DNA of 45,821 bases from a virus: IMG/VR virus record IMGVR_UViG_3300006151_000024, positions 1 to 45,821 of that record. One strand, given 5' to 3'. The position numbers and the translations under genes were made by a program. Positions 9,221 through 45,821 of this stretch are shown here, in pieces (within the stretch, counting starts at the first letter, position 1; each line of letters opens with the position of its first letter). The notes beneath the pieces are model-generated. The model worked only from the letters and a program-made list of their open reading frames with translations. It ran no database searches and was not told the DNA's origin.

Positions 9221-9478
9221 TTACTCCGCCTCCAATTCATCCAATTTTCCAGACAGGACCAGGGCCACCGCCTCGCACAAAATCCCCATTTTCACCCGCT
9301 CCAGGTTGTCCCAGCTTAGATCCTTTCCTCCACATTGCCCCGCTGTCTTTTGTGTGGCCATTTGGATCCATTGGTTTACCAGTTCTTTCAGGTTTTCAAT
9401 GTCTGCGTTTTGCCCTCCGGCTTGGAGCGCCGCCCACATGGAGAAGTCCTCCAGCGGTGCCGGGTTTTGGTGGCTCAT
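9221..9478 (-). CDS. Hypothetical protein (85 aa)
   Basis: The internal Met MSHQNPAPLEDF at 9478 overlaps the methyltransferase stop (ATGA). The longer track ORF (to 9730) lies inside the methyltransferase gene. Confidence 0.5.
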   Translation of the reverse strand: MSHQNPAPLEDFSMWAALQAGGQNADIENLKELVNQWIQMATQKTAGQCGGKDLSWDNLERVKMGILCEAVALVLSGKLDELEAE

Positions 9479-11397
9479 ACTGCCACCGCCTTTTCCAGCT
9501 GCTCCATGGTGGTGATCTCCTCCCCGCACCACTCCGGCAGGTTGGCCCGCACCAGGGCCGTGGCAAAGGGAGGCGGGACCGCGTTTCCGCACCTGGCCAC
9601 CTGCTTGGTTTTTCCGTACTCCCTCCCGGTGTAGTCCCGATCTATTTTGTAGTCGTCCGGGAAACCGTTTGCCCGGTACAGTTCGCGGGGCGTCAGCATA
9701 CGCAGGCCAATGTCCGCCATGAAATACCACGCCCCGCCGATGTAGAACAGAATCACCTCTGTGTCCTCCAGGTGGTAGCCGCAGAACTCATTCAGGGCTG
9801 CCCGGATTTTTGGCCAGTTCTGCAGGTTCACCCTCGGCTCCGCCTTTACGATCCGGGTTGTTACCACGCCATGGTGGCCGCCGCCTGCGGTGATAGTCTG
9901 GAGCGGGTCCTGGGCTTGTCCTCCCAGGTTGGTGCCTTTCATCTTGACCATGTGGGCGGTCTGGAGGGCGTTGTGGTCCACCGCTGTCACGGTTGGGAGT
10001 GGGTCAGACACCGCCGCGCCCACCACTCCGCCGTAGAACTTTGACAGGTTGGCCACGGTCACACCCTCCCGATCCCGCGTGGTTATCGTATGCAACGGGG
10101 CCGCCGCGTCCTGGTTGTGATCCCCGTTGTAATACTTTGTCAGAGTGGCCGCCGCCAGTCCGTAACGGTTGGAGGCGTCAATGGTCATTATGGGATCTGT
10201 CACTCCCTGGCCCCGGACCCGCTCGGTTTGCTCGGTGTGATACTGGATCATGGCCGGGCACACCACGCACTCCTCCGCCTTGGAAACCTGGGTGTGGGTT
10301 GGCTCCTCCATACTCCGGCAGCGGTCCCCGCCGCCCGTCTGGCCTATGGCCGCCAGGGTTGGGGTGATCAGCATTTGGTGGCCGCCCGCTCCGGTCCCCG
10401 TTATCGTGTTTACCGGCTCGGTGATAGCTGTGCCCACTGCGTTCTGGTTGTTGTGCATTGTCAGCGGCGCCATAACAGGGGAGGCCACGCCATACCCATG
10501 TTTTGCTGTGATGGTCTGGAGCGGTTCCGCCAGCCCTTGCCCCCGGAACTCCCCGGCGTGGTTGACGATTACCAGGAACGGGGAGGCGGACCGGATCACG
10601 AATTTGTCCACGCCTCTGGCCACCCGCCGCATGGTATTTCTGGCCAGCGGACGGACCGCCGCCACACCGTACCGCTCCCGGATCTCCTCCTTGGTTGCAA
10701 AAATGGAGGGGGTGGGCAGGTTCCAGTCTATGATCTCCGCCGCGCTGCGCCATGGCTTTTTAGTTCCCGCTCTGGCCTCCGGGCTGTCCGCCGGCGCGTG
10801 GGTAGGCTCCGGCCATACAATGGGCCGCCCGTCGCTGCGGGCGATCAGGAAAAAGCGTTTCCGCGTGGTTGGCGCTCCATAGTCCGCCGCCACCAGTTCC
10901 CGCCATTCCACGGTGTAGCCCAGGGCCTCCAGCTGGCCCAGCCATTGGCGGAACGTCTGCCCGGTCTTTGATTTCACGGGCCGCCCCCGCCGAACAGGTC
11001 CCCAGGTCTGGAACTCCTCCACGTTCTCCAGGATGATCACGCGGGGGCGTACCGTCCCGGCCCAGCGCAGGACGATCCAGGCAAGGCCCCTTATATTCTT
11101 GTCCACGGGCTTGCCGCCCTTGGCTTTGCTGAAATGCTTACAGTCCGGGGAAAACCACGCCAGTCCCACCGGGCGGCCCCTGCACACCTCCACCGGGTCC
11201 ACGTCCCACACGCTGGCCTGATAGTGCATAGTGTGGGGGTGGTTGGTCCGGTGCATTAGGATGGCGTCCGGGTCGTGGTTTATGGCTATGTCCACCACGC
11301 GGCCCGTGGCCAATTCGATCCCCGTGGAGGCCCCGCCGCCGCCGGCGAAATTGTCCACTATGATTTCATCCAGTAAATTGATCTGTCCATGGCTCAC
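9475..11397 (-). CDS. DNA (cytosine-5)-methyltransferase with an expanded variable region
   Basis: Motif I DNFAGGGG, motif IV FSPDCKHFS, motif VI ILENV, RMLTPRE and motif X GNAVPPP. GTG 11397 overlaps the upstream stop and lies 9 nt after AAAGGAGG. The central 300 aa or so holds six (D/E/A)P(L/V/I)xT(I/V)(T/D) modules. Confidence 0.9.
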   Translation of the reverse strand: MSHGQINLLDEIIVDNFAGGGGASTGIELATGRVVDIAINHDPDAILMHRTNHPHTMHYQASVWDVDPVEVCRGRPVGLAWFSPDCKHFSKAKGGKPVDKNIRGLAWIVLRWAGTVRPRVIILENVEEFQTWGPVRRGRPVKSKTGQTFRQWLGQLEALGYTVEWRELVAADYGAPTTRKRFFLIARSDGRPIVWPEPTHAPADSPEARAGTKKPWRSAAEIIDWNLPTPSIFATKEEIRERYGVAAVRPLARNTMRRVARGVDKFVIRSASPFLVIVNHAGEFRGQGLAEPLQTITAKHGYGVASPVMAPLTMHNNQNAVGTAITEPVNTITGTGAGGHQMLITPTLAAIGQTGGGDRCRSMEEPTHTQVSKAEECVVCPAMIQYHTEQTERVRGQGVTDPIMTIDASNRYGLAAATLTKYYNGDHNQDAAAPLHTITTRDREGVTVANLSKFYGGVVGAAVSDPLPTVTAVDHNALQTAHMVKMKGTNLGGQAQDPLQTITAGGGHHGVVTTRIVKAEPRVNLQNWPKIRAALNEFCGYHLEDTEVILFYIGGAWYFMADIGLRMLTPRELYRANGFPDDYKIDRDYTGREYGKTKQVARCGNAVPPPFATALVRANLPEWCGEEITTMEQLEKAVAV

Positions 11398-11696
11398 CGC
11401 GTCCCGCCTCCTTTGATCTCCATATACAGGGCGCAGTCTTTCCCGGTCCGCTTGCACCACGCCCATTCAATCATGGCGCCCGCGCTTTCCTGATAGTCCG
11501 GCAGGAACACGGCCAGGTCCGCCGCCTCCAGCATGGCCAGCGTGATCCGCATATAGTCCCGTTCTCCCAGGCCCGCCGGTAAAATGGCCGGGTTCAGGAC
11601 TACATGGCCCAGCGCCTCCATGGCTTTGGCCGCCTCCCGAAACTTGGCCCTGTATTTTTTGTCGCCGGTGATCTTTCCGGCTATGTAGATTTTCAC
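11394..11696 (-). CDS. DUF4406 / nucleoside 2-deoxyribosyltransferase-like protein
   Basis: KIYIAGKITGD....FREAAKAMEALGHVVLNP........DYMRITLAMLEAADLAVFLPDYQESAGAMIEWAWCKRTGK fits the DUF4406 pattern. I prefer the GTG at 11696, 8 nt after AAGGAG. Confidence 0.6.
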   Translation of the reverse strand: MKIYIAGKITGDKKYRAKFREAAKAMEALGHVVLNPAILPAGLGERDYMRITLAMLEAADLAVFLPDYQESAGAMIEWAWCKRTGKDCALYMEIKGGGTR

Positions 11697-12319: not shown

Positions 12320-13027
12320 TTATCCTTTCCGGCGGGCCATGGTGGCCAGCCGTCTAAGTATAGTTTTCAGGGCTACCCCCCACCCCCCCCCCGCAAAAAT
12401 GGACATTTGCGCGGTGTGGGCGTTGTATCGTTCCTCTTGCCCTGCAAAATAGTCCGGGTCGATCTCAAACCCCACAAAGTCCAGACCAGCGTCATGGGCC
12501 GCGATCCGGCTGCTGCCGCTCCCCAGGTGTGTGTCCAATATCCTGTCGCCTGGTTTTGCATATCTTGAAAAAATCCAGGAATATAGCGCCACTGGTTTTT
12601 GTGTTGGGTGTATTGTTCCGCCCTCTTTTTGCAGTTGCCCGCGATTTATGATCACCACTCTGGTTGGGGTGTCGAATGATGAATAGGCCAATTCGCAGTC
12701 GCTCATGGTTAAATCCTGCTGGCCTTTATACCAGACGATCCAGCCCTTGTGCCTTTGATTTATTGCTGGCACAAAATAATTTGCACCCCATATAATTTGG
12801 TGTTTTGAAACCCTTTCCAATTCCCTGAAATATTCGTCTGGCGGCGGGGCCGCGTCCCATCCCTTTGTCGGATGGTATTTTCTATTGTGCTTTGGGTTTT
12901 TGTTTATTGACAGCTTTTGACCGTCAATCCCTATTCCGTATGGCGGATCTACCACGGCCAGGTCGAAATAGTGATCCGGTATTTTCTGCATAGCTGCCAT
13001 GCAATCCATATTGTAGGCTACATTCAA
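12320..13027 (-). CDS. DNA methyltransferase, beta-class N6-adenine/N4-cytosine (DPPY)
   Basis: Motif IV FDLAVVDPPYG near the N-terminus and motif I ILDTHLGSGSSRIAA near the C-terminus (beta-class order). The TTG start at 13027 lies 7 nt after GGAGGAGGTG. Confidence 0.85.
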   Translation of the reverse strand: MNVAYNMDCMAAMQKIPDHYFDLAVVDPPYGIGIDGQKLSINKNPKHNRKYHPTKGWDAAPPPDEYFRELERVSKHQIIWGANYFVPAINQRHKGWIVWYKGQQDLTMSDCELAYSSFDTPTRVVIINRGQLQKEGGTIHPTQKPVALYSWIFSRYAKPGDRILDTHLGSGSSRIAAHDAGLDFVGFEIDPDYFAGQEERYNAHTAQMSIFAGGGWGVALKTILRRLATMARRKG

Positions 13028-13971
13028 ACCTGCGGCACCTCCTCCATTTTGATTTGGTCAAGCTGTGCCGTTGTGGCCGCGATCCGGTCCGTTGCCATTT
13101 TCCAATAGTCCGGGTTGATCTCCACACCCACAAAATTGCGCCGCAGGCGCTTGGCCACCACTCCGGTGGTCCCGCTCCCTGCGAATGGGTCCAGGACCGT
13201 CCCACCCTCCGGGCACCCTGCCAATATGCACGGTTCCACCAGGCGCTCCGGGAATGTGGCATAGTGGGCGGCCTTAAATTGCCCCGTTGCTATGCTCCAG
13301 ACGCTCCTTTTGTTTCTGCCCCCGGTGTTGTTCGCGCTGTTCCCGTGGCTCTCCCGCTCCACGCGGGCGCTGTTCTGGAACGACCGCCCGCCTGTATAGG
13401 CTCCACCGCCCCGGAACGTCCTGGCGTTCCCCTTGACCCCGCATGGCTCCCGGATTGCCGCCGCGTCAAAATAGTAATGTGGCGATTTTGACAGCAGGAA
13501 AATATATTCATGGGCTTTTGTGCAACGGTCCCGGACGTTCTCCGGCATGGCGTTGGTTTTGTGCCATATAAGATCCTGCCGCAAATACCACCCATCAGCC
13601 CGCAGGGCAAAGGCCAAAAGCCACGGGATCCCCATCAGGTCCTTGTACTTATACCCGCTCGGTCTGTGCTTTGCCGTGTGGCCGCAGGTGTTCCGCGTGT
13701 TGGTCGGTGGCTGCGGCCCGGACCTGGTGGCGTAGCTGTCCCCGATATTGACCCACAGCGTCCCGTCCGGGCGCAGGACCCGCCGGACCTCCCGGAACAC
13801 GTCCACCAGCTTGCCTATGTACTCCTCCGGGGTTTCCTCCATGCCGATCTGGCCGGCGGCCCCGTAGTCCCGCAGATTGTAATAGTGTGGGGAGGTCACA
13901 CAGGTGTGGACGCTTTCCGCCTCCAGTGTCCGCAGTTGCTCCAGGGCGTCACCGCAAAGGATCATTTCCAC
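13024..13971 (-). CDS. DNA methyltransferase, beta-class N4/N6 (SPHY variant of motif IV)
   Basis: VHTCVTSPHYYNLRDYG, then ..GMEETPEEYIGKLVDVFREVRRVLRPDGTLWVNIGDSY, and C-terminal VLDPFAGSGTTGVVA. This is typical of the PF01555-type layout. Confidence 0.85.
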   Translation of the reverse strand: MEMILCGDALEQLRTLEAESVHTCVTSPHYYNLRDYGAAGQIGMEETPEEYIGKLVDVFREVRRVLRPDGTLWVNIGDSYATRSGPQPPTNTRNTCGHTAKHRPSGYKYKDLMGIPWLLAFALRADGWYLRQDLIWHKTNAMPENVRDRCTKAHEYIFLLSKSPHYYFDAAAIREPCGVKGNARTFRGGGAYTGGRSFQNSARVERESHGNSANNTGGRNKRSVWSIATGQFKAAHYATFPERLVEPCILAGCPEGGTVLDPFAGSGTTGVVAKRLRRNFVGVEINPDYWKMATDRIAATTAQLDQIKMEEVPQV

Positions 13972-20716: not shown

Positions 20717-21766
20717 TCAGGCCGCCACGGTCATGTATTCGTCATAAAGCATTTGCGGCGTTTTCCACTCCAGGATCCGGCGCGGATAGTTGGCCAGCCA
20801 CTCCTCCACCTCCGCAACCTCCGCCGCGCTCACATTGTCAAAGTTGGTCCCCTTTGGAAAAAACCGTCTTATGATCCGGTTCATGTTTTCGTTGCTGCCC
20901 CGCTCATAGGCAGAATATGGGTGACAATAAAAAATCTTTGTGCGCGGTTTCCTGGCCCGCTTGGATCGCTCCATCCCCTCGCAGTCCTGGAACTCGCACC
21001 CATTATCTACCGTGATAGACCGGAAAACCTCCCGGAACTTTGCCCCCATGCGGCGCTCCATGCGGTCCAGCGCCCGGACCACGCTTTCCATGGTATGATC
21101 AGGCACCCGGACGATCACGGGGTAACGGGTCAGCCGCTCGGTCAGCACCACCAGCGCCGCCTTGCTGCCCTTGCACCCCATAACGCTGTCCATTTCCCAG
21201 TTTCCGAAAGTTTCCCGGCTGTTGATCTCCTCCGGGCGCTGTTCGATGGTGTCCCCCTTGGCCGGTCTGGCCCGGTTATTGTCGCCCGCTTTCCGCCCCT
21301 CGTTCCGCCGCTCCCCTTTATACAGCAGATCCGCCTCGGTCAAGTTCAGGAAAATGTCCCCGCGATAAATCCAGTTGTAAAGGGTGGTTTCGCAGATTTC
21401 TGTATCAAACTTTTTCCCGTCAATCTGGATCTGTGCCAGGGCAGCGCCTGGGGACCGCTTTTTATTTATGATCTGGTCCTCAATGTACTCTACAAAGGCA
21501 AAGTCTTTGCCCAGCTTAATGTCCGGCCCCTTTGCCCTCAAATTCTCCTGGTATTTCCGCTCCGCCACGTCCGCGCAGTATCTTTCCACAAATTCGTATT
21601 CACTGGTTTGCTGTACGCACATTCCCCGCGCTATTTCATTATAGATCGTTTTTTTACAGACGCCTATTTCTTTTGCAATCGCCGCCGGTTTCGCCCCTGT
21701 CCGCAGGGCACCCTCTATTTTCAGGCGTTGCTCCCACTGGATATGATGATAGCCCTTGTAATTCAT
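20717..21766 (-). CDS. IS30-family DDE transposase (349 aa)
   Basis: N-terminal HTH. DDE triad contexts are GNWEMDSV, ITVDNGCEF and YERGSNENMNRIIRRFFPKGTNF. ATG 21766 follows AAAGGAGG. No flanking inverted repeats were found by eye. Confidence 0.9.
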   Translation of the reverse strand: MNYKGYHHIQWEQRLKIEGALRTGAKPAAIAKEIGVCKKTIYNEIARGMCVQQTSEYEFVERYCADVAERKYQENLRAKGPDIKLGKDFAFVEYIEDQIINKKRSPGAALAQIQIDGKKFDTEICETTLYNWIYRGDIFLNLTEADLLYKGERRNEGRKAGDNNRARPAKGDTIEQRPEEINSRETFGNWEMDSVMGCKGSKAALVVLTERLTRYPVIVRVPDHTMESVVRALDRMERRMGAKFREVFRSITVDNGCEFQDCEGMERSKRARKPRTKIFYCHPYSAYERGSNENMNRIIRRFFPKGTNFDNVSAAEVAEVEEWLANYPRRILEWKTPQMLYDEYMTVAA

Positions 21767-21789
21767 AGCAGCCTCCTTTTGGCATGACA

Positions 21790-21820
21790 AAACCGGCGCG
21801 GTGCAATACCACGCCGGTTT
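21790..21820 (-). terminator. Hairpin between the XRE gene and the transposase gene (possible terminator/attenuator)
   Basis: aaaccggcg (21790-21798) pairs with cgccggttt (21812-21820), 13-nt loop. On the minus strand it runs into TTTTG. Confidence 0.45.
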
Positions 21821-22062
21821 CACTCTCTCCCCAGCAGCCACAACACGGAAACGTCCAGAATATCCGCTATTGTGGTAACTTCATAATCTGCCACATACCT
21901 GCTGCCGCTCTCAATCCTGCTTATGCTGTCCCGCTCCATGGGGATCCCTGTTAGTTGTAACTGTCTGCATAGATCAGACTGTGAAAAGCGTTTCGCCAGG
22001 CGGGCCAGTCTTATGCGATCACCACAAATATTTCTTTTTCCGTGAAATGTGTATGCCCTCAT
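21820..22062 (-). CDS. XRE-family HTH transcriptional regulator (CI/Cro-like, 80 aa)
   Basis: GDRIRLARLAKRFSQSDLCRQLQLTGIPMERDSISRIESGSRYV.DYEVTTIADILDVSVLWLLG is a classic HTH_3 domain. GGAGGA RBS. Confidence 0.8.
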   Translation of the reverse strand: MRAYTFHGKRNICGDRIRLARLAKRFSQSDLCRQLQLTGIPMERDSISRIESGSRYVADYEVTTIADILDVSVLWLLGRE

Positions 22063-23593: not shown

Positions 23594-23929
23594 CTATTTC
23601 CCCCGGCTCTCCAGGCGGGTGATCTGCTCCAGCATTTGCCGGAATTTATCCCACCCAAACATGGCCGCAAAGGCCACGAAAAAGCCCAGGCAGATGGCGG
23701 CGGCCACCATGTACCAGACAATGGGGACGGCCATGATCCGGCACACGGCGAAAAACGCCAGCAGGGTCACGGCCATGGCCACGATAAAGGCCAGCAGGTT
23801 GGTGGGCACCTTGTCCCAGGTCAGTTTCTTGACCACCTCCACAATGATGTTGGTGATCACCATAAGGATCAGCACCGCCAGCAGGACGGCGGAAAGAACG
23901 GCGGGAATGTACTGCAGAATGGTTTCCAT
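23594..23929 (-). CDS. Holin (three predicted transmembrane segments)
   Basis: 111 aa. Hydrophobic segments are IPAVLSAVLLAVLILMVITNIIV, LLAFIVAMAVTLLAFFAV and IVWYMVAAAICLGFFVAFAAMF, with a charged C-terminus. It is adjacent to the endolysin gene. Confidence 0.65.
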   Translation of the reverse strand: METILQYIPAVLSAVLLAVLILMVITNIIVEVVKKLTWDKVPTNLLAFIVAMAVTLLAFFAVCRIMAVPIVWYMVAAAICLGFFVAFAAMFGWDKFRQMLEQITRLESRGK

Positions 23930-23950
23930 GGTTATGTCCTCCCTAAATGA

Positions 23951-24952
23951 TTATTTCACAGCCCCGCCCAGGGCGCACAGCAGCGCGTCCAGGCTGGGGA
24001 ATGTGCTGTAATTGGCCAGCCAATAGTCCGGCGTGTCGATCACGCCAGCGGCCACCAGGGCGCCCACGGCGTTGGGCACGGTGCTGGAGCGCGGCCCGGC
24101 CTTGGTGATCTTCTCCGCCGCCTTGACCAGCAGGCGGTCCAAATACTTGACCTTGCCGGACGCGGCGGCCTGCTGCCAGTAGTCCGGGGAGTTGATCACG
24201 CCCAGCCGGGCCAGCTTGCCCACAGCCGCCGCCGCCTCGGTCAAATAGATCACCTGCCCCACATGGATCAGGTTCTTGTTTTTGATCCCGTTGATGGCCG
24301 CCAGGGCGTCCACAGTGGTGCCATACCGGACCGCGATCTTTCCCAGGGTATCACCCGCCACAACGGTGTGGGCGGTGCCCTGGGCCGCGCTGGAGGCCCC
24401 CGTGGTTCCCTGCGTGGTTCCGGCGGTGGTCCCGCCCATTTTCCTGGCGATCTCCGCAAAGTCCGGGCAGATAAACCCGCGAATATACCGGCCATTTATG
24501 GCCATTGTCCGCTTGCCCACCTTTCCGCCGCTCATGTTGCCCTCTGTCACCACAAAGGACCCGGTGGAAACCTTTGTCACGATCCCGATGTGGTCCCCGG
24601 CTCCGGTGCAATCGCCCGCGCCGTTGTCCTGCCAGTCATACACGCAGGCGTCCCCGATCTTGGGCGTGTGGGCGTCGTTCTCCACCCAAATGCCCAGCTT
24701 TTTTGCCACAATGGTGTATTTCTCCACGCCGCACTCGGTCCCGGTGTACTTGGCGATCCCGGCCCGGATATAGGCCGCGCTCACCGTGGTGGCACAATAG
24801 GCGTCTTTCACCTGGACCTTGTACCCCCGCGCCAGGGGGCGGTAATTGTTGTAAACCTCCAAAATGTCCATGTGTTTGGCGCTGCCTACGGTGGCCCCCA
24901 CCCATGCGTTGATGGTGTCCGCCACTTTCTGGCGCAGTTGGTTCTCTGTCAT
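23951..24952 (-). CDS. Endolysin: CHAP/NlpC-P60-type amidase/peptidase + LysM + two C-terminal GVIxxPDYW repeats
   Basis: Cys/His context KDAYCATTVSAAY ... GDHIGIVTKV. LysM is HTVVAGDTLGKIAVRYGTTVDALAAINGIKNKNLIHVGQVIYL. The repeats are LGVINSPDYW and AGVIDTPDYW. Confidence 0.85.
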   Translation of the reverse strand: MTENQLRQKVADTINAWVGATVGSAKHMDILEVYNNYRPLARGYKVQVKDAYCATTVSAAYIRAGIAKYTGTECGVEKYTIVAKKLGIWVENDAHTPKIGDACVYDWQDNGAGDCTGAGDHIGIVTKVSTGSFVVTEGNMSGGKVGKRTMAINGRYIRGFICPDFAEIARKMGGTTAGTTQGTTGASSAAQGTAHTVVAGDTLGKIAVRYGTTVDALAAINGIKNKNLIHVGQVIYLTEAAAAVGKLARLGVINSPDYWQQAAASGKVKYLDRLLVKAAEKITKAGPRSSTVPNAVGALVAAGVIDTPDYWLANYSTFPSLDALLCALGGAVK

Positions 24953-24968
24953 TTGTATGTTGCCTCCC

Positions 24969-25382
24969 TTACAGGCCCACGTCCGGGGGTTCCTCCCGCT
25001 CGGTGGGCGGGTCCATGGGCGCGGCCTGGTAGCCGCTCCCGCTTGTTTTGGCGGCCTCCGCCGCCTTGTCCTTGTTGGTCTTGATCCAGCCCATGACGCC
25101 GTTTTCCAGGCCGCAGACGCCGAACACGCAGGCGGTCAGGGTCGCCGGTTCGTTTCCCGTGTGCCAGAACACGGCCAGCGCGGCCACCGTGTAGGCCACC
25201 AGGATCACCGCCTCCAGGATCAGCACCTTGTCCATGACGCCCATTTTCCCCTTGTCCCCGCCAACCTCCGGTTGGAGGCGGCGGGGACGGTACAGGCGCG
25301 GCACCAGGACCCGGCACAGCAGGAAACCCATGGCGGTCCCTGCGGCCATGGCCAGTGCGGCCACCACCACAGTTTTGGTCAT
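24969..25382 (-). CDS. Holin-like membrane protein (137 aa)
   Basis: Met MTKTVVVAALAMAAGTAMGFLL at 25382 overlaps the XhlA-like stop (ATGA). There are further hydrophobic segments and a charged tail. Confidence 0.55.
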   Translation of the reverse strand: MTKTVVVAALAMAAGTAMGFLLCRVLVPRLYRPRRLQPEVGGDKGKMGVMDKVLILEAVILVAYTVAALAVFWHTGNEPATLTACVFGVCGLENGVMGWIKTNKDKAAEAAKTSGSGYQAAPMDPPTEREEPPDVGL

Positions 25383-25714
25383 GCCGCTGCCGTCAGCAGG
25401 TGGATCAGCCCAGCGCCCAGGGCGGCGGCCAGCACCCCCAGCGCGCCGTAAAACAGCTTTTCCACCATGCCGTCCCACCGCTTGCCCGGTTTCTTTTCGA
25501 TGGCGTCCACCTTTTTCCCGACACTGTTCACATCGTCCTCAATCCGCTTAATGGTTTCCGCCTGGTATTCCATTTTTTTAGCCATGACCTCCATTGCGGT
25601 GGCCAGCTTATTCAGTGCGTCAAGCCGATCCTCCAGTTCGTCAAGTCTGTGCGTATTGCTTTTGGCCCTGGCGTCTACTTCCACCAGCCGGACCGCCATT
25701 TCCTCCGCGTTCAT
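25379..25714 (-). CDS. XhlA-like lysis-associated membrane protein
   Basis: 111 aa with an N-terminal coiled coil (RLDELEDRLDALNKLATAMEV...) and a C-terminal transmembrane segment (LFYGALGVLAAALGAGLIHLL), the XhlA architecture. GGAGGTG RBS. Confidence 0.65.
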   Translation of the reverse strand: MNAEEMAVRLVEVDARAKSNTHRLDELEDRLDALNKLATAMEVMAKKMEYQAETIKRIEDDVNSVGKKVDAIEKKPGKRWDGMVEKLFYGALGVLAAALGAGLIHLLTAAA

Positions 25715-25718
25715 ACCT

Positions 25719-25880
25719 TCACACCTCCAATTTTTCAGCGGTGCCGCCGATGGCCTCCGCGTATTTTTGCCGCAGGGTGTTAATCTCCTCTGCGCGGGTC
25801 AGTGCGTCATGCTGGGCCAGTTCCATGGCCTGGGCCTGTATAATCACATTTTGCTGGTCAATGATGGCGCACAGGCTCAT
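25719..25880 (-). CDS. Hypothetical small protein (start uncertain)
   Basis: ORF in operon context. I prefer the Met at 25880, which follows the upstream stop. Confidence 0.35.
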   Translation of the reverse strand: MSLCAIIDQQNVIIQAQAMELAQHDALTRAEEINTLRQKYAEAIGGTAEKLEV

Positions 25881-25893
25881 GATCAACCCCGCA

Positions 25894-26103
25894 TTATTCA
25901 CCGCCGCCACCGCTGGCCATGGCGTCATATTCCGCCGTCACGTCCTTCTTGACCTGCTCCGCAAAGTCGAAAAATGCCTGGTATTCCTCCGGCTTGGTGT
26001 CTTTCTGGCGCAGAATCGCGATCTGGTCGTCCACGCTGTACCTGGTATTGATCACCTTGGCGATCATCTGCTCACGGTTGATCCTCATGTTCTGATTTTC
26101 CAT
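25894..26103 (-). CDS. Hypothetical small protein (69 aa)
   Basis: ATG 26103 lies 8 nt after GGAGG. It sits between the DGR RT gene and the lysis genes. Confidence 0.45.
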   Translation of the reverse strand: MENQNMRINREQMIAKVINTRYSVDDQIAILRQKDTKPEEYQAFFDFAEQVKKDVTAEYDAMASGGGGE

Positions 26104-26121
26104 TTTCGCTGCCTCCAAAAA

Positions 26122-27330
26122 TTATTGTAGTTTGCACCTTGGCGCCGCCGCCCCAAACAGTTCACGGAATAGCTTGTCCATGCTCTGGACGGCTTTTCTG
26201 CCACCCCGGTGCAGGGCGTAGCCCTTCCATGACCCGTATGCTGCCGCCGCGCCCTCTGCGGTCATTTCTCCAGCTGCCACTTTTGCGGCAAACTTTTTTA
26301 ACCGCCGCCGTTGTCTTGTGATACTCTCCCGGCACATTCTCCGCTCAACCTTTCCCGTTTCTGTCAGCCGGTGCTTTGCTTTCAGAAATTTGAAACCATG
26401 CCGGATTGGGACGATCCTGGTTTTCCTCTGATTGACTGAAATGCCCAGGGGTTCGCAAAATGAAATTACAAGCCCCACCGCCTCCTTTGCCTCTTTCTTT
26501 GTCCGAAATAACATATAGCCGTCGTCCATATATCTGGCATACCAGCGCACACGCAAAACCTGCTTAATGAAATGATCCAGGCTATTGGGATAACTCACCG
26601 CCGTGATCTGTGAAATTTGACTGCCTAGCCCCAGGCTTTTCCCGGTGTACTGTTCCGCGTCCTGCCGTTTTACCCTTTGCCAGTTCGTTGTTGCTGTCGG
26701 ATAGCCAAAGGGAATTACAAAATCTTTCAAAAGCCGCAGGATCCGGTGGTCCCGAAATGCTTTTGAATAGACGTTGAAACATTCCCGGTGCAGGATATTG
26801 TCAAAATATCCCGAAAAATCGAATACCACTGCCCAGCCGTCATTACTGAAACCGTTAGCCCTGTAAAACTGCTGCAGGTGCGCGGTCAGGCGGTCCATGC
26901 TCCGGTCCACGCCCTTGCCCTCCAGGCAGGCACCATTATCATAAATCAGGCCACGGCCCAGCATGGGCACCAGGGCACTGTCGCAGGTGCTCCGTTGTAC
27001 CACCCTTTCCGAATAGTGGACGCTGCGAATATGCCGCAGTTTCCCGCGCTCTATGGTGTCGAACTCCACAAAGCCCTTTGTGATGTTCTCCCCAGCCTCC
27101 AGCTTTTGGTTCGTTTCCTCCATGTTCCGCAGCAGGTTCATTTGATACCTCTGGACGCTGGTTTTCCAGCTGACATTCCGCATAGATTTCTGGTTGCCCC
27201 GGTATAGCGATTTATACCGGGCTATGTTTTCCAGCCGGTCATTTTCTGCGTATCGTTTCCATTTCTTTTCCTCTCTGGCAGCTTTCCGCCTCTTGTATCT
27301 GGCCTCCCGCCGCCGCTCCAGTGAAGTCAT
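26122..27330 (-). CDS. Diversity-generating retroelement (DGR) reverse transcriptase
   Basis: Contains GKSLGLGSQISQ ([LI]GxxxSQ, DGR-typical motif 4), ARYMDDGYML (YxDD) and FKFLKAKH. ATG 27330 lies 8 nt after AAGGAG. It is directly downstream of the TR. Confidence 0.9.
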   Translation of the reverse strand: MTSLERRREARYKRRKAAREEKKWKRYAENDRLENIARYKSLYRGNQKSMRNVSWKTSVQRYQMNLLRNMEETNQKLEAGENITKGFVEFDTIERGKLRHIRSVHYSERVVQRSTCDSALVPMLGRGLIYDNGACLEGKGVDRSMDRLTAHLQQFYRANGFSNDGWAVVFDFSGYFDNILHRECFNVYSKAFRDHRILRLLKDFVIPFGYPTATTNWQRVKRQDAEQYTGKSLGLGSQISQITAVSYPNSLDHFIKQVLRVRWYARYMDDGYMLFRTKKEAKEAVGLVISFCEPLGISVNQRKTRIVPIRHGFKFLKAKHRLTETGKVERRMCRESITRQRRRLKKFAAKVAAGEMTAEGAAAAYGSWKGYALHRGGRKAVQSMDKLFRELFGAAAPRCKLQ

Positions 27331-27640
27331 GCGAATTTCTCCTTTAGGTCTTGTGGGTCCTTGTACGGCAGGCCCGCCCCGTCGGTTCGCCACTCCCGGC
27401 GCGGTGGGTGTGTCTTTCCGAAATAGCCGCGTAATGATACCGGGCATGAAACTGGCGTGATACACACAGACACGCCAGCCATGCACAAAAGCGTCCGCCC
27501 GATCATATCAAGGCCCAAATTTACCCTTGCGGGATGGTTATGCGCTCCTTCCAAATAAAAATTGATTTTTGAAAATCAGGCACGGCTTTCACCGCCATTT
27601 CTGGCGTTTACTCGGTCTGGCCCAGCCCGCAGGAAACGGG

Positions 27641-27782
27641 CTGTATTGGAATCACAGGGGCGCGTAAATGCCGCCGTTCGTGGCCACGTTGTTGTTGGCG
27701 TTGCCGTTGTTGTTGACAATGCACACGTTAGTGGCGGACTGACGTTGCGCGGACGCCTCCCACCAGTTGCAGCGGCCACCAC
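27641..27782 (-). repeat. DGR template repeat (TR)
   Basis: Gap-free alignment to 28308-28449 at a constant offset of 667 nt. The coding-strand reading is AAC-rich (..GTC AAC AAC AAC GGC AAC GCC AAC AAC AAC GTG..). Nearly all differences from the other copy fall at its adenines. It is non-coding, between avd and the RT gene. Confidence 0.9.
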
Positions 27783-27817
27783 GACGACGGTTTATCAGCG
27801 CATAACCAATACAAAAA

Positions 27818-28243
27818 TCAAGGTGTTTGATCCTTGAATTTTGCTATGAATTTATTGTCTGATTTCCTCCAGCCTCGCAGCAGGGATCCCTCTTTGATCA
27901 GCAGTTCCGTTACCGGCTGGAATTTATCGGGGTTGACTGGCAGGGTTGTGAGTATGTACTGCAAAAGCTGGAGAATTTGCTCCGCGGTTATAATGGCCTG
28001 TGTCTGATAGTCGCGCCGTCTTTCCGCCTCCCGTAAATTTTGCGGATATATGGTATTTGCCGCCGTAATGTAGTCGATCAATTTTATAATCTTCTCCACC
28101 ATGGGAAACGTGAACACAGGCCGCCACCGCTTTGGCACGATTTTTTCATTCATTACAAACCGGGTCAATTCCGCCCGGATCAGCGTGGCCGTGTGGTAAA
28201 ATTCCAGTTGGCTCTCGCTGCGTTTATTTTTTAGTACGCTCAT
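27818..28243 (-). CDS. avd: DGR accessory variability determinant (Avd-like four-helix-bundle protein)
   Basis: 141 aa, basic and helical, with ...ANTIYPQNLREAERRRDYQTQAI.... It sits between the VR-containing gene and the TR, as in canonical DGRs. Confidence 0.75.
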   Translation of the reverse strand: MSVLKNKRSESQLEFYHTATLIRAELTRFVMNEKIVPKRWRPVFTFPMVEKIIKLIDYITAANTIYPQNLREAERRRDYQTQAIITAEQILQLLQYILTTLPVNPDKFQPVTELLIKEGSLLRGWRKSDNKFIAKFKDQTP

Positions 28244-28270
28244 TTACCTGCCCTTCTTTCCGTTCTCTCC

Positions 28271-28295
28271 ATCCCGCCCCACATGGGGGCGGGAT
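28271..28295 (-). promoter_or_regulatory. GC-rich hairpin just 3' of the VR (DGR target-recognition hairpin/cruciform candidate)
   Basis: atcccgcccc (28271-28280) pairs with ggggcgggat (28286-28295), a perfect 10-bp stem with a 5-nt loop. It starts 12 nt beyond the end of VR homology and is absent at the equivalent TR position. Confidence 0.8.
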
Positions 28296-28303
28296 GGCCC
28301 TGA

Positions 28304-29200
28304 TTAACCGATACGGAAGCACAGGGGCGCGTAAACGCCGCCGTACGTGGCCACGTAGTTGGTGGCGTCGCCGGCGTCGTCGACAACGCACACGTAAGTG
28401 GCGGCCTGACGACGCGCGGACGCCTCCCACCAGTAGCAGCGGCCACCACCGTTGCCCGCGCCCTTGATGATGTGCTTTGCCCCGCCGTAGAAAATAGGGT
28501 ACTGAAGGTTGCAGCCACCGCCGCCGGTCCATCCCGCGTCACCGTCAGACCAGAACGTGTTACTGAATACCTCCACCTCGGTGGGCACCCACAGCTTGCC
28601 CATGGTGTTCCAGTCCCAGCCGGTATCGCTTTCCAACGCCCCAGCCGCAGAAAAACGATGCTCCAACAGGGCGATTTTTTCCACAATGCAGGGTTTCAGG
28701 TCAGCAGGCAGGGCCGCGTATACGCCTACCGTTTCATCGTTCAAGGTATGGAACAGCTTGGAGGCCCGCCACGGATTGGGTTCGGCTGCGGTTCCGTTGT
28801 TGGTGGCGGTGTCGTTGAACACCTTCGTACCCGCCAGACAGTCACGGGAAATAAAGTCAACATGATGGCCGATCATGGTGGGATAGCCGCACTTGTAATA
28901 GTGGTCAATTCCGGCCACCTCCATGATCACCACCTCGCCGGTAGTCAGGGTGATGGTCTTATAGTCACCGATATGGATCCCGGCCATGTCACCGGCCAGA
29001 ATACGCGCCCGCAGGTTTGCCCAGCTGTCGGTCAGTTCCTTGCCATAGGGGACCCCGCCGGCCAGAAAGGTTTCCTTGAAAAACTCGGTTGCCGCGTCAA
29101 GCGGCGCCCGCCCCGTCCCCTTTGCGTCTGTGTCCACCAGGATCGTGTCCGTCCCCTGCAGACCAGTGATTTTCTGCAATTCGTTTGTTTTCAAACTCAT
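28304..29200 (-). CDS. DGR variable (target) protein; putative receptor-binding tail protein with a C-type-lectin-like variable C-terminus
   Basis: 298 aa, directly after the tail fibre gene, GGGAGGA RBS. The C-terminus GGRCYWWEASARRQAATYVCVVDDAGDATNYVATYGGVYAPLCFRIG is encoded by the VR. KLWVPTEVEVF precedes it. Confidence 0.85.
   Translation of the reverse strand: MSLKTNELQKITGLQGTDTILVDTDAKGTGRAPLDAATEFFKETFLAGGVPYGKELTDSWANLRARILAGDMAGIHIGDYKTITLTTGEVVIMEVAGIDHYYKCGYPTMIGHHVDFISRDCLAGTKVFNDTATNNGTAAEPNPWRASKLFHTLNDETVGVYAALPADLKPCIVEKIALLEHRFSAAGALESDTGWDWNTMGKLWVPTEVEVFSNTFWSDGDAGWTGGGGCNLQYPIFYGGAKHIIKGAGNGGGRCYWWEASARRQAATYVCVVDDAGDATNYVATYGGVYAPLCFRIG
28308..28449 (-). repeat. DGR variable repeat (VR)
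   Basis: Counterpart of the TR, and the last 142 nt of coding sequence of ORF 28304..29200. By hand count 121/142 positions are identical to the TR. 19 of the 21 differences are at TR adenines. Confidence 0.9.
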
Positions 29201-29215: not shown

Positions 29216-30052
29216 TTAAAGTATTTTGACAGCGGAAATTTCCGCGCTGTCCCTGGTTGTAATGACCGCCCCATTTCTCCCCGCCAGCGGTGTGGCCAGA
29301 CTGCCGGACATGATGGCATTGGTAAGCGCCTGGAGGCGGCGGGTGTAGTCCGCCCGAATATCGTTGACCAGTTGGAACAGCAGGGCGGTTTCTGCTCCGC
29401 AGCTGCATTTCTGGCGGTTTTCGGGTTCCTTCCTATATACGGATATTCCGGCGCCGTCCCTGGTTACGATCTCCTCCCCGGCCCTGTCTGCCAGCGGCGA
29501 ATAAACCCGCCCGGTCAGGATTTCCCCAGCAATTTGTCCGTAAATTTGCGGCATGACGGCAGCGGTACAATATTCCGCCACGTCCTGGGCAGTCATCCAC
29601 GCCTCTGCCGGATAGCCCAACGAAACCTCCACGCCTGCGGTCACAGTTATGGACACCTGATAGCGGCGCACGTCCGGGGCCATGCCCTGGGTGTATGCGC
29701 TGACATACTGCTTTGCGTCGCCCAGGGAGCCATAGTAGACCATGACATTTTCCCGCGTGTCCGGGTCCCTGGCATAGATGGCAAAGCCGCCGATCCAGAA
29801 ACCCACGGCAAGGCCACCGTTTAAGTCGCTGCGGTATTCCACCGTCATGGTGGCCGTGCTGTCCTTTACCGTGGGCACGGTGCTGGTTCCGGCAGGCCCC
29901 GGATCAATGGGGGCAGTCAGTTTTCTGGCCGCGTCCGCGCTGGCCGCCGTTCCCTTTTCCATGATCACGCCGGACAATTCCAGCGTTTGCCCCGCCACCA
30001 TTTTGGCCAGCAGGCGGTTTCCGGCCTCTGTAATTACAAAACCGTAAAACAT
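29216..30052 (-). CDS. Tail fibre protein (tail-collar fibre N-terminal domain)
   Basis: MFYGFVITEAGNRLLAKMVAGQTLELSGVIMEKG....GFWIGGFAIYARD resembles the phage tail-collar fibre N-domain. It follows the baseplate J/I genes. Confidence 0.65.
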   Translation of the reverse strand: MFYGFVITEAGNRLLAKMVAGQTLELSGVIMEKGTAASADAARKLTAPIDPGPAGTSTVPTVKDSTATMTVEYRSDLNGGLAVGFWIGGFAIYARDPDTRENVMVYYGSLGDAKQYVSAYTQGMAPDVRRYQVSITVTAGVEVSLGYPAEAWMTAQDVAEYCTAAVMPQIYGQIAGEILTGRVYSPLADRAGEEIVTRDGAGISVYRKEPENRQKCSCGAETALLFQLVNDIRADYTRRLQALTNAIMSGSLATPLAGRNGAVITTRDSAEISAVKIL

Positions 30053-44492: not shown

Positions 44493-45821
44493 TTACAGGG
44501 CCACGCCGTTGTTGCGCAGGATCCCACGGAAGTCCGCCGCATTGATCCCCCAGTCCAGCCAAATGTCCCACAGATAGCCCAAATAGCCGGCCTTTTCGGA
44601 CCGCCGGAAACTGGGCGCGGTGGTCCCGTTCAGATAGTCCACCTGTACGGACTTCACCAGCCTGGGATCGGACGCCATAAACCAGGGGCAGGCCGCGCCG
44701 GCGGCCAGAATATTCAGGACGGCCTCCTGTACCACCTTGATCTTGTTCTTATACTTGGTGTTCAGCACGTTGACGGTGTGGTTTCCGATCCCCTCCACGT
44801 CAATCTGTGCCGTGCCCAGGATCTGCTCCACTTTCATGCCGTAGCCCACAGGCACCACAATGGTGGCAGGCTCCACCATAATGCTTTCCCCAAACTGGTC
44901 CGTCTGCAGGCCCATCATCTCGATCATCTTCATCAGCACCGCAACGCTGGGGGCGCTGCCCGTGGTGATCAGGTTCTTGTGGGCCGCGTCGAACATGGGG
45001 GCGCCGTCAAAAATGGCGGGATTGTTGTAGATCAGTTCATACACCTGGCGGTTGATCTTCTGCTTGGCCTTGCGGGTGTACTGTTTCGGCATATTGGCCA
45101 GGAAACCAATGTCGTCATTGATAAACGCCTCGCGGGTCATGCTGAACTGGGTGGCGTAGGTGTCCAGCTTGCGGGTGGGCAGCAGGTCCGTCTGCAGGGT
45201 GCTGGCCTTGATCTCCCCGCCCTCGGTCACTTTCTGGAAGTCGCCGCCGCCCATGACGTACTCGTGATCCTTGCTGGCCTTAAAGTCCGGCAGGGTCCCC
45301 TTGCTGGTCCACTCCTCAAATGTGGCCGGCTGGAGGTCGTACTGCTGGACAATGGCCTTTTTGATGGCGTTATCCATGATGGCAGGGAAGTCCGCCGTGG
45401 AACTAAAGAACTGCCGCACCGCCGTGTCCCACAGGTCGGCACGGGACCGGCGCAAAAGTTCCGTAACGGTGCCCTCACCGCTGCGGGCCATGCACTCGAT
45501 CAGCATATCCCGCATGGACATACCCCGCATATCCTCCGCGCCCTGGGCGGGCTTGTCCAGTTCCACGCCCGCCTGGATCAGCATGGCGTCCCTGGCGGCG
45601 TCCCGGAAATTGTCCATTCCGCTGTCCCTGGTGCCTACCACCACCGGGGTGCCGTGCTGGATCATGTAGTCCACGGCGGCGGCCCGCACCTTGTCCATGG
45701 TGTCGCCGTTGCGGATATGCTCCGCCGGGTCCATTCCGGTCTGTCGGCACAGGGCCAGAATGTCATTGATCCGCTGGCGCTCCTCCGCCACGGCCCGCTG
45801 TGCGCTCTCCTCGCTGGTGGC
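44493..45821 (-). CDS. Major capsid protein (HK97-fold), 3' part. The 5' end is at 308..1 across the junction
   Basis: The track ORF 44493..45791 begins at an internal GTG, and the frame stays open to the contig end. 45745-45821 duplicates 1-77. Confidence 0.8.
   Translation of the reverse strand, partial: ATSEESAQRAVAEERQRINDILALCRQTGMDPAEHIRNGDTMDKVRAAAVDYMIQHGTPVVVGTRDSGMDNFRDAARDAMLIQAGVELDKPAQGAEDMRGMSMRDMLIECMARSGEGTVTELLRRSRADLWDTAVRQFFSSTADFPAIMDNAIKKAIVQQYDLQPATFEEWTSKGTLPDFKASKDHEYVMGGGDFQKVTEGGEIKASTLQTDLLPTRKLDTYATQFSMTREAFINDDIGFLANMPKQYTRKAKQKINRQVYELIYNNPAIFDGAPMFDAAHKNLITTGSAPSVAVLMKMIEMMGLQTDQFGESIMVEPATIVVPVGYGMKVEQILGTAQIDVEGIGNHTVNVLNTKYKNKIKVVQEAVLNILAAGAACPWFMASDPRLVKSVQVDYLNGTTAPSFRRSEKAGYLGYLWDIWLDWGINAADFRGILRNNGVAL
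45745..45821. repeat. Terminal direct repeat, copy 2
   Basis: Identical to bases 1-77. Confidence 0.95.

Follow-up and report, generated by a model that had tools for sequence, protein, structure and literature searches.

We analysed positions 1 to 45,821 of IMG/VR virus record IMGVR_UViG_3300006151_000024, and this whole stretch of 45,821 nucleotides is called the window here. The subject is a diversity-generating retroelement (DGR) encoded on its minus strand, next to the genes for the phage tail. DGRs are well understood in one model, that of Bordetella phage BPP-1, and most natural DGRs reside in gut phages that have not been studied experimentally. The genes and repeats of the element, together with the adjoining fibre gene, are located as follows:

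29216..30052, minus strand: proximal part of the tail fibre, 278 aa (phrog_7037, 1.5e-36), directly upstream of the target gene
28304..29200, minus strand: DGR target gene, 298 aa, a DUF6273-like (C-type-lectin-like) distal tail-fibre module, from its open reading frame (ORF), its homologs, AlphaFold2 (AF2) and Foldseek
28315..28449, minus strand: variable repeat (VR), the last 45 codons of the target gene
27818..28243, minus strand: avd-like gene, 141 aa, a four-helix bundle, from phrog_3206, AF2, Foldseek and context
27648..27782, minus strand: template repeat (TR), with 30 adenines and 10 AAC codons in the VR frame
26122..27330, minus strand: DGR reverse transcriptase (RT), 402 aa, from RVT_1, phrog_1423, LGSQISQ and YMDD

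The TR and VR form a 135-nt repeat that aligns pairwise without gaps at a constant offset of 667 nt. There are 16 mismatches over these 135 nt, and 15 of them fall on template adenines, of which the TR holds 30 in total. The bias towards adenine has a hypergeometric P of 9e-11, a value taken on a 133-nt core whose counts equal those of the full repeat (16/15/30). A previous sequence-only reading of this DNA had counted by hand over a longer span (27641-27782 against 28308-28449), and the computed alignment reproduces its numbers exactly, with the same offset, 121 of 142 positions identical and 19 of the 21 mismatches at an A of the 27.6-kb copy. On the coding strand these are 9 A>G, 7 A>T and 3 A>C, located at the first (11), second (5) and third (3) codon positions, while the remaining two mismatches are one T>G and one T>A. 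Tabulated by class, the mismatches are therefore adenine-specific, as that reading had claimed, and not spread over the four bases. Its figure of 19 substituted adenines out of 34 is correct for the mismatches of the 142-nt span but inflated as a description of the repeat, which has 15 of 30, since the final 7 nt of the span (27641-27647 / 28308-28314) are not homologous.

The VR is read in frame with ORF 28304-29200(-) and encodes the C-terminus of its 298-aa product, where it had been placed before. Its variable adenines include those at the first and second positions of AAC codons. The sole change in it at a base other than adenine is a T>G that gives Ser266Ala and is private to the copy in the window. 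A further difference, TGA in the TR versus TGC in the VR, is located 5 nt before the repeat end. The C is fixed in all 13 related VRs examined, so this A/C difference looks like a marker that distinguishes the two forms of the initiation of mutagenic homing site (IMH and IMH*) rather than a product of mutagenesis. Counting AAC codons alone, the theoretical repertoire of the repeat is 5.8e11. An adenine-masked scan of both strands found no second VR in the window.

The RT carries the motifs LGSQISQ and YMDD and matches Pfam RVT_1 (9e-13) and phrog_1423 (2e-65). Its best match in the PDB is chain A of 8ub7, the Bordetella DGR RT (E 2e-11), from an entry titled ‘Diversity-generating retroelement ribonucleoprotein reverse transcriptase’, and in this alignment IGSLTSQ and YMDD of the Bordetella bRT pair with LGSQISQ and YMDD. 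Relatives of the RT were found by tblastn in 89 records of deposited phages, including Roseburia phage Shimadzu, nd12, nd4, and Faecalibacterium, Bacteroides and Bordetella phages, and these phage relatives are DGR carriers. Judged from these alignments, the enzyme is supported as a member of the DGR RTs. An alternative is that it belongs to another class (retron, group II intron, or a defence RT of the abortive infection (Abi) or defence-associated reverse transcriptase (DRT) type), and that the repeat is an ordinary duplication. NCBIfam and PADLOC return weak, generic RT matches to group II, Drt and UG RT models, the other PDB matches are a group II maturase (5e-3) and a ‘retron-type’ RT chain (7e-3), and several database records call homologs ‘retron-type’. 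The NCBIfam and PADLOC matches, however, are far under their cut-offs (64 vs 300 bits for group II; at most 64 bits in PADLOC), the best solved relative is a DGR RT, and the LGxxxSQ motif is present in the RT of the window. The adenine-specific mismatch pattern (P about 1e-10) also argues against another class, as does the finding in the window of a single Rfam match, to RT-2, with no intron RNA domains and no retron msr/msd. We regard this alternative as scarcely credible.

For the avd-like gene, genomic context is the strongest evidence of identity. From alignment of Avd homologs we fetched 100 loci, and in 88 of these the gene is located between a VR and a TR with at least 75% of mismatches at adenines. 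The protein matches phrog_3206, ‘Avd protein of DGR’, at E 1.7e-5 and shares 31% identity with the protein annotated as Avd in phage Shimadzu. It has no match in Pfam (PF05635 was undetected) or NCBIfam, and a PDB sequence search gave nothing meaningful. Its AF2 model has four helices, with a predicted local distance difference test score (pLDDT) of 88.7. In Foldseek the model comes closest to 2gsc and 2rld, and next to the Bordetella Avd chains 8ub7_B and 4dwl, at template modelling (TM) scores of 0.5-0.7 and E-values of 1e-2 to 0.2; such structural matches are weak because four-helix bundles hold little information. Close Avd homologs (76-80% identity) also occur in three loci (L089, L090, L091) from metagenome-assembled genomes (MAGs) labelled Mailhella (Desulfovibrionaceae), Selenomonas and Synergistales. 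Their spread over very different phyla could be attributed to binning errors or to an unusually broad distribution.

Comparison with close relatives allowed us to interrogate recent activity. An IMG/VR contig (L001) is the same phage as that in the window, with 17 differences in 5,463 aligned bases (99.7% identity). All 17 differences lie inside the VR, and 16 of them are at template-adenine positions. Likewise, in a Clostridia MAG (L083) the VR departs from that of the window at 16 positions, while avd, the TR, the spacer, the fibre gene and the target outside the VR are all unchanged. The TR is 100% identical over 135 nt in L001, L083 and a prophage in a cultured isolate (L084), while each VR is distinct and departs from the TR at adenine positions only. 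The same pattern extends to proteins. The target’s cluster at 90% identity holds 313 distinct sequences, and variation was read from 14 full-length members, among which 17 of the 19 adenine-containing codons vary and a single site can show as many as 9 residues. Within the last 47 residues of these members the only varying codon without adenine is the window’s private S266A, and outside adenine-containing codons the variation in the cluster is singleton or biallelic. Natural variation is confined to template-adenine sites. The most 3′ adenine seen varying is A118 (TAC), so the mutagenised tract spans approximately TR nucleotides 15-118. Four members of the 90% cluster (297 aa) lack one AAC codon, which implies that insertions or deletions occur in the TR/VR.

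These comparisons bear on whether the element is a relic, with its parts present, its function lost and its TR/VR differences historical. That they were made on assembled contigs only, and that one VR difference is not at an adenine, would be compatible with a relic. A relic does not readily account for a 99.7%-identical contig over 5.4 kb in which 17 of 17 differences are in the VR and 16 at adenine sites, for three identical-TR contigs that bear three further distinct VRs, or for an RT, Avd, TR and RT-2 RNA that are all intact and conserved. We consider a relic very improbable, and from sequence comparison the DGR appears to have been recently active.

The target gene is the last of a series of tail genes, in the order Baseplate_J, Tail_P2_I (gpI), the 278-aa fibre and the target. 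The target protein has no match in Pfam (even with E up to 10), NCBIfam, PHROG or PDB by sequence, and PDB searches with both the single sequence and a 73-sequence profile gave nothing meaningful. An 80%-identical homolog (P0009) reaches Pfam DUF6273 (PF19789) at 23.6 bits, against a gathering threshold of 23.5 bits, and the target of the window itself falls below this threshold; its membership of DUF6273 is supported through homologs and fold. The AF2 model has a pLDDT of 80.5, with residues 209-243 poorly defined. Foldseek gave one significant PDB neighbour, 9qa6, an IgA peptidase of T. ramosa that has DUF6273 as its N-terminal domain (PMC12402451), and 23 significant viral neighbours, many of which are named DUF6273, receptor-binding protein or tail-collar fibre. 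In gut phages, DUF6273 domains have been described as C-type-lectin-like DGR targets with C-terminal VRs (PMC10743442, PMC11792537).

Phage Shimadzu provides a further link between target and fibre. The N-terminus of its orf22 is homologous to the N-terminus of the 278-aa fibre protein of the window (E 8e-5), and residues 196-428 of orf22 are 45% identical to residues 55-297 of the target. On the basis of this fusion, we argue that in the window two genes together encode the fibre, with the target as its distal module. Other target homologs of about 449 aa (P0019, P0020, P0024 and others) have an extra N-terminal region of about 150 aa. That this extension (in P0019) might correspond to the fibre gene of the window was considered and rejected, as the two have no similarity.

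Synteny, the Shimadzu gene fusion and the fold matches together point to a receptor-binding role of the target, and diversification would most likely vary receptor specificity and may thereby diversify host range. The sequence-only reading had proposed a tail receptor-binding protein encoded right after the tail fibre gene. The position is borne out by the phrog_7037 fibre directly upstream and the role is supported by the three lines above, but the C-type-lectin fold was not recovered directly, the match being to DUF6273. A DGR could also be genuine and diversify a protein that is not a host-receptor binder, for example an adhesin that binds mucus, host or immune ligands, or a protein outside the virion, leaving host range unchanged. 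The receptor-binding role is itself putative, non-bacterial ligands have been raised for DGR-diversified gut-phage proteins in the tentaclin paper (PMC10743442), and the sole solved DUF6273 domain is from a bacterial IgA peptidase (PMC12402451). The gene, however, comes immediately after those for baseplate J, gpI and the fibre, the Shimadzu tail fibre polypeptide ends with the same domain, and the Foldseek neighbours are named as receptor-binding or tail-collar proteins. We consider this second possibility unlikely, though it retains some weight, and favour a receptor-binding fibre tip.

The element also has parts that the sequence-only reading did not describe, namely an RT-2 RNA, a stem-loop close to the TR, a pairing between the TR 3′ end and RT-2, and a hairpin past the VR:

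28269..28297, minus strand: GC-rich hairpin/cruciform-forming inverted repeat, 12-bp stem and CATGT loop, candidate target-recognition element
27623..27643, minus strand: stem-loop CAGCCCGU-uuccu-GCGGGCUG, 4 nt past the TR, candidate Avd-binding element
27336..27625, minus strand: Rfam RT-2 RNA (RF03077), which fills the TR-RT spacer, candidate DGR ‘Sp’ RNA
27541..27555, minus strand: single-stranded UUUGGAAGGAGCGCA, conserved within RT-2, that may pair with the TR 3′ end

RT-2 is the only Rfam match within the window, covering model positions 1-222 of 222 at 107.1 bits against a gathering score of 40. It lies directly upstream of the RT start codon, and the assignment of this start to the ATG at 27330 is supported because the RT-2 match ends at the ribosome-binding site. 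In 23 of the 35 related loci scanned, RT-2 begins 3-30 nt past the TR end, and it is likewise found beside the TR in phage Shimadzu (145 bits). The paper that defined the RT-1 to RT-19 motifs tied only RT-10 to a DGR, that of BPP-1, and its authors, Weinberg et al., speculated that other RT motifs might serve in DGRs (PMC5737381). We found no paper in the literature that connects RT-2 with DGRs.

The 3′ end of the TR (UUCCAA, 27646-27651; TTCC plus 2 nt) can base-pair with a TTGGAAGGAG that is conserved in RT-2. The flanking base pairs covary among 22 distinct TR/Sp pairs: next to TTCC:GGAA, 17 have A:T and 3 have G:C, and one position further 19 have A:T and 1 has T:A. This helix is a candidate equivalent of the TR:Sp priming duplex of BPP-1. 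RNAduplex comparison of the TR 3′ end with the spacer was too noisy to be used, with only TTCC:GGAA surviving an anchored comparison, and a second helix, GCGCCCC:GGAGCGC, is not claimed, as its register is ambiguous across loci. We think it probable that RT-2, published as an orphan ‘RT-associated’ motif, is the cis-acting spacer RNA (Sp equivalent) of a large Firmicutes-phage DGR clade, in which its conserved single-stranded GGAAGGAG prepares cDNA priming by base-pairing with the 3′ end of the TR, and that this clade has a distinct target hairpin with a 5-nt YWTGT loop.

The stem at 27623-27643 changes yet stays paired in four related loci (L006, L008, L015, L002). An Avd-binding stem-loop downstream of the TR has been reported in 207 of 278 DGRs (bioRxiv 10.1101/2023.10.23.563531), and the stem-loop of the window agrees with it in position and is a candidate for the same function by comparison with the BPP-1 ribonucleoprotein structure in that work. 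On the other side of avd, the hairpin at 28269-28297 starts 6 nt past the target stop codon. It is conserved and covarying: of 70 distinct related loci, 58 have a stem of 7 bp or longer closed by a 5-nt loop at this location, and the stem takes 37 different sequences while the loop is mostly CTTGT, CATGT or TATAT; in a random control the figure is 43 of 1780 segments. We rejected an intrinsic terminator as its explanation, since there is no T-run in the window and a T-run in only 2 of the 58 hairpin loci. A hairpin/cruciform is required for BPP-1 homing (PMC3240598), and by analogy the hairpin past the VR is a candidate for target recognition.

The proposed mechanism is modelled on BPP-1, from which we infer the RNA-protein interactions, the priming site and the course of homing. 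The RT and the Avd-like protein would bind an RNA that runs from the 3′ end of avd through the TR and the structured RT-2 spacer, and cDNA synthesis would begin in the GC-rich 3′ part of the TR. The RT would copy C, G and U faithfully and misincorporate opposite A, with the expected outcome that up to 17-18 codons, among them 10 AAC codons, undergo random substitution. The substituted codons would lie on the beta-hairpin region of the DUF6273/C-type-lectin-like domain, at the distal end of the two-gene tail fibre.

We conclude with high confidence that the window holds a complete, recently active DGR in the tail module of a temperate Oscillospiraceae myovirus. The sequence-only reading had likewise called the system complete: the repeat, RT, Avd and in-frame VR are all found, and the near-identical contigs add evidence of activity. 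Its ORF coordinates, the two RT motifs, the DGR-type affinity of the RT (best PDB relative 8ub7, phage relatives that carry DGRs) and the canonical order target-avd-TR-RT stand as well, and the same order is seen in Shimadzu, where Avd and RT are annotated. There are several points that weigh against the conclusion. One VR difference sits at a non-adenine, and activity is deduced from assembled contigs of different samples. Avd is weak by sequence and structure (no Pfam match, PHROG E 1.7e-5, Foldseek E 1e-2 to 0.2). The target model is of low confidence at residues 209-243, and Foldseek did not retrieve the classic C-type-lectin DGR targets (Mtd, TvpA) for it. Lastly, the TR:Sp helix is just 6 bp with limited covariation, and the register of the second helix is ambiguous.

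The wider genome is that of a temperate Oscillospiraceae myovirus. Nucleotides 1-77 of the window are repeated at 45745-45821, so the assembly is circular, with a genome of about 45.7 kb that is probably complete. The gene order wraps around accordingly, with portal and terminase at the low end and a head gene at the high end. On a single strand lie the genes for terminase, portal, head, sheath, tape measure, baseplate, fibre, the DGR and lysis. The same strand encodes two DNA methyltransferases, at 9475-11466 (-) (663 aa, phrog_116) and 13024-13971 (-) (315 aa, phrog_67), which may be anti-restriction functions of the phage. A transposase-like gene in the early/lysogeny region encodes a 374-aa protein (20717-21841 (-); phrog_4646 ‘transposase’, E 3e-120), which may be an integration function or an inserted insertion sequence (IS) element.

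The hosts of close relatives are Oscillospiraceae from mouse gut. For example, L084 is Pseudoflavonifractor sp. 524-17, a cultured mouse-gut isolate (NZ_QWEK01000012.1, 126882-135304, on a 173-kb scaffold), and its prophage segment is 95% identical to the window, with an identical TR and a different VR. The window and L083 are identical in the DGR, target and fibre except for the VR, and about 290 differences between them lie outside the DGR, nearly all in the lysis region (23813-26121 compared). Genes of this region include a CHAP+LysM endolysin (23951-24952) and an XhlA-like gene (25379-25714). This pattern suggests that the lysis module is exchanged as a mosaic. A blastn search of the 6-kb region against deposited phages gave only matches of about 70% in baseplate genes, and therefore no close deposited relative exists.

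The DGR of Shimadzu (LR596903, orf22-orf24) is identical to that of the window in its order of gpU, W, J, I, fibre/target, Avd, TR, RT-2 RNA, RT and lysis genes; its annotation reads ‘tail fibre protein’ for orf22, ‘Avd’ for orf23 and ‘Reverse transcriptase’ for orf24, followed by an endolysin. Identity between the two is 44% for the RT, 45% for the target domain and 31% for Avd. The Shimadzu TR/VR is about 130 nt, with a spacing of 647 nt versus 667 nt in the window. A single Shimadzu protein of 431 aa unites the fibre N-terminal domain with the diversified DUF6273 domain, whereas the window divides them between two genes (278 + 298 aa). The host families also differ, being Lachnospiraceae for Shimadzu and Oscillospiraceae for the window.

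Like the prototype BPP-1 (mtd-avd-TR-brt), the element has the order target-avd-TR-RT, and its adenine-specific mutagenesis acts on a VR at the C-terminus of a tail-fibre receptor-binding protein. Both have an RT with [I/L]GxxxSQ and YMDD, a four-helix Avd, and a GC-rich inverted repeat past the VR (PMC3240598). The element of the window differs in its target, which is DUF6273-like with no match to Mtd by sequence or Foldseek, in an Avd that is undetectable with Pfam, and in its spacer RNA, which is Rfam RT-2 rather than the RT-10 of BPP-1 (PMC5737381). The hairpin of the window has a 12-bp stem and a 5-nt YWTGT-type loop, while that of BPP-1 has an 8-bp stem and a GRNA tetraloop. A second group for comparison is the DUF6273 targets of gut phages (nd4/nd12 ‘tgt2’; Faecalibacterium phages Lelie, Roos, Pioen and CP11), which are likewise small single-domain proteins (234-294 aa) with a VR at the C-terminus of a C-type-lectin-like DUF6273 domain (PMC10743442, PMC11792537). 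The RTs of these phages are 26-32% identical to that of the window, but tblastn detected no similarity between these phages and its target, for which Shimadzu was the only phage found. The window has a single target, not two, and no tentaclin.

The system in the window is a standard DGR of a group already annotated in a named phage, and it leaves the current picture of DGR biology unchanged. What is modestly new is the assignment of the RT-2 RNA to DGRs, the clade-specific hairpin, the evidence from split and fused fibres, and a cultured lysogen. The main side value is that the orphan RT-2 RNA family would be tied to DGRs and thereby given a functional home. The split-versus-fused arrangement of the tail fibre pins the DUF6273 target to the fibre tip. 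Since a prophage with an identical TR is present in the cultured isolate, the system could be induced and manipulated.

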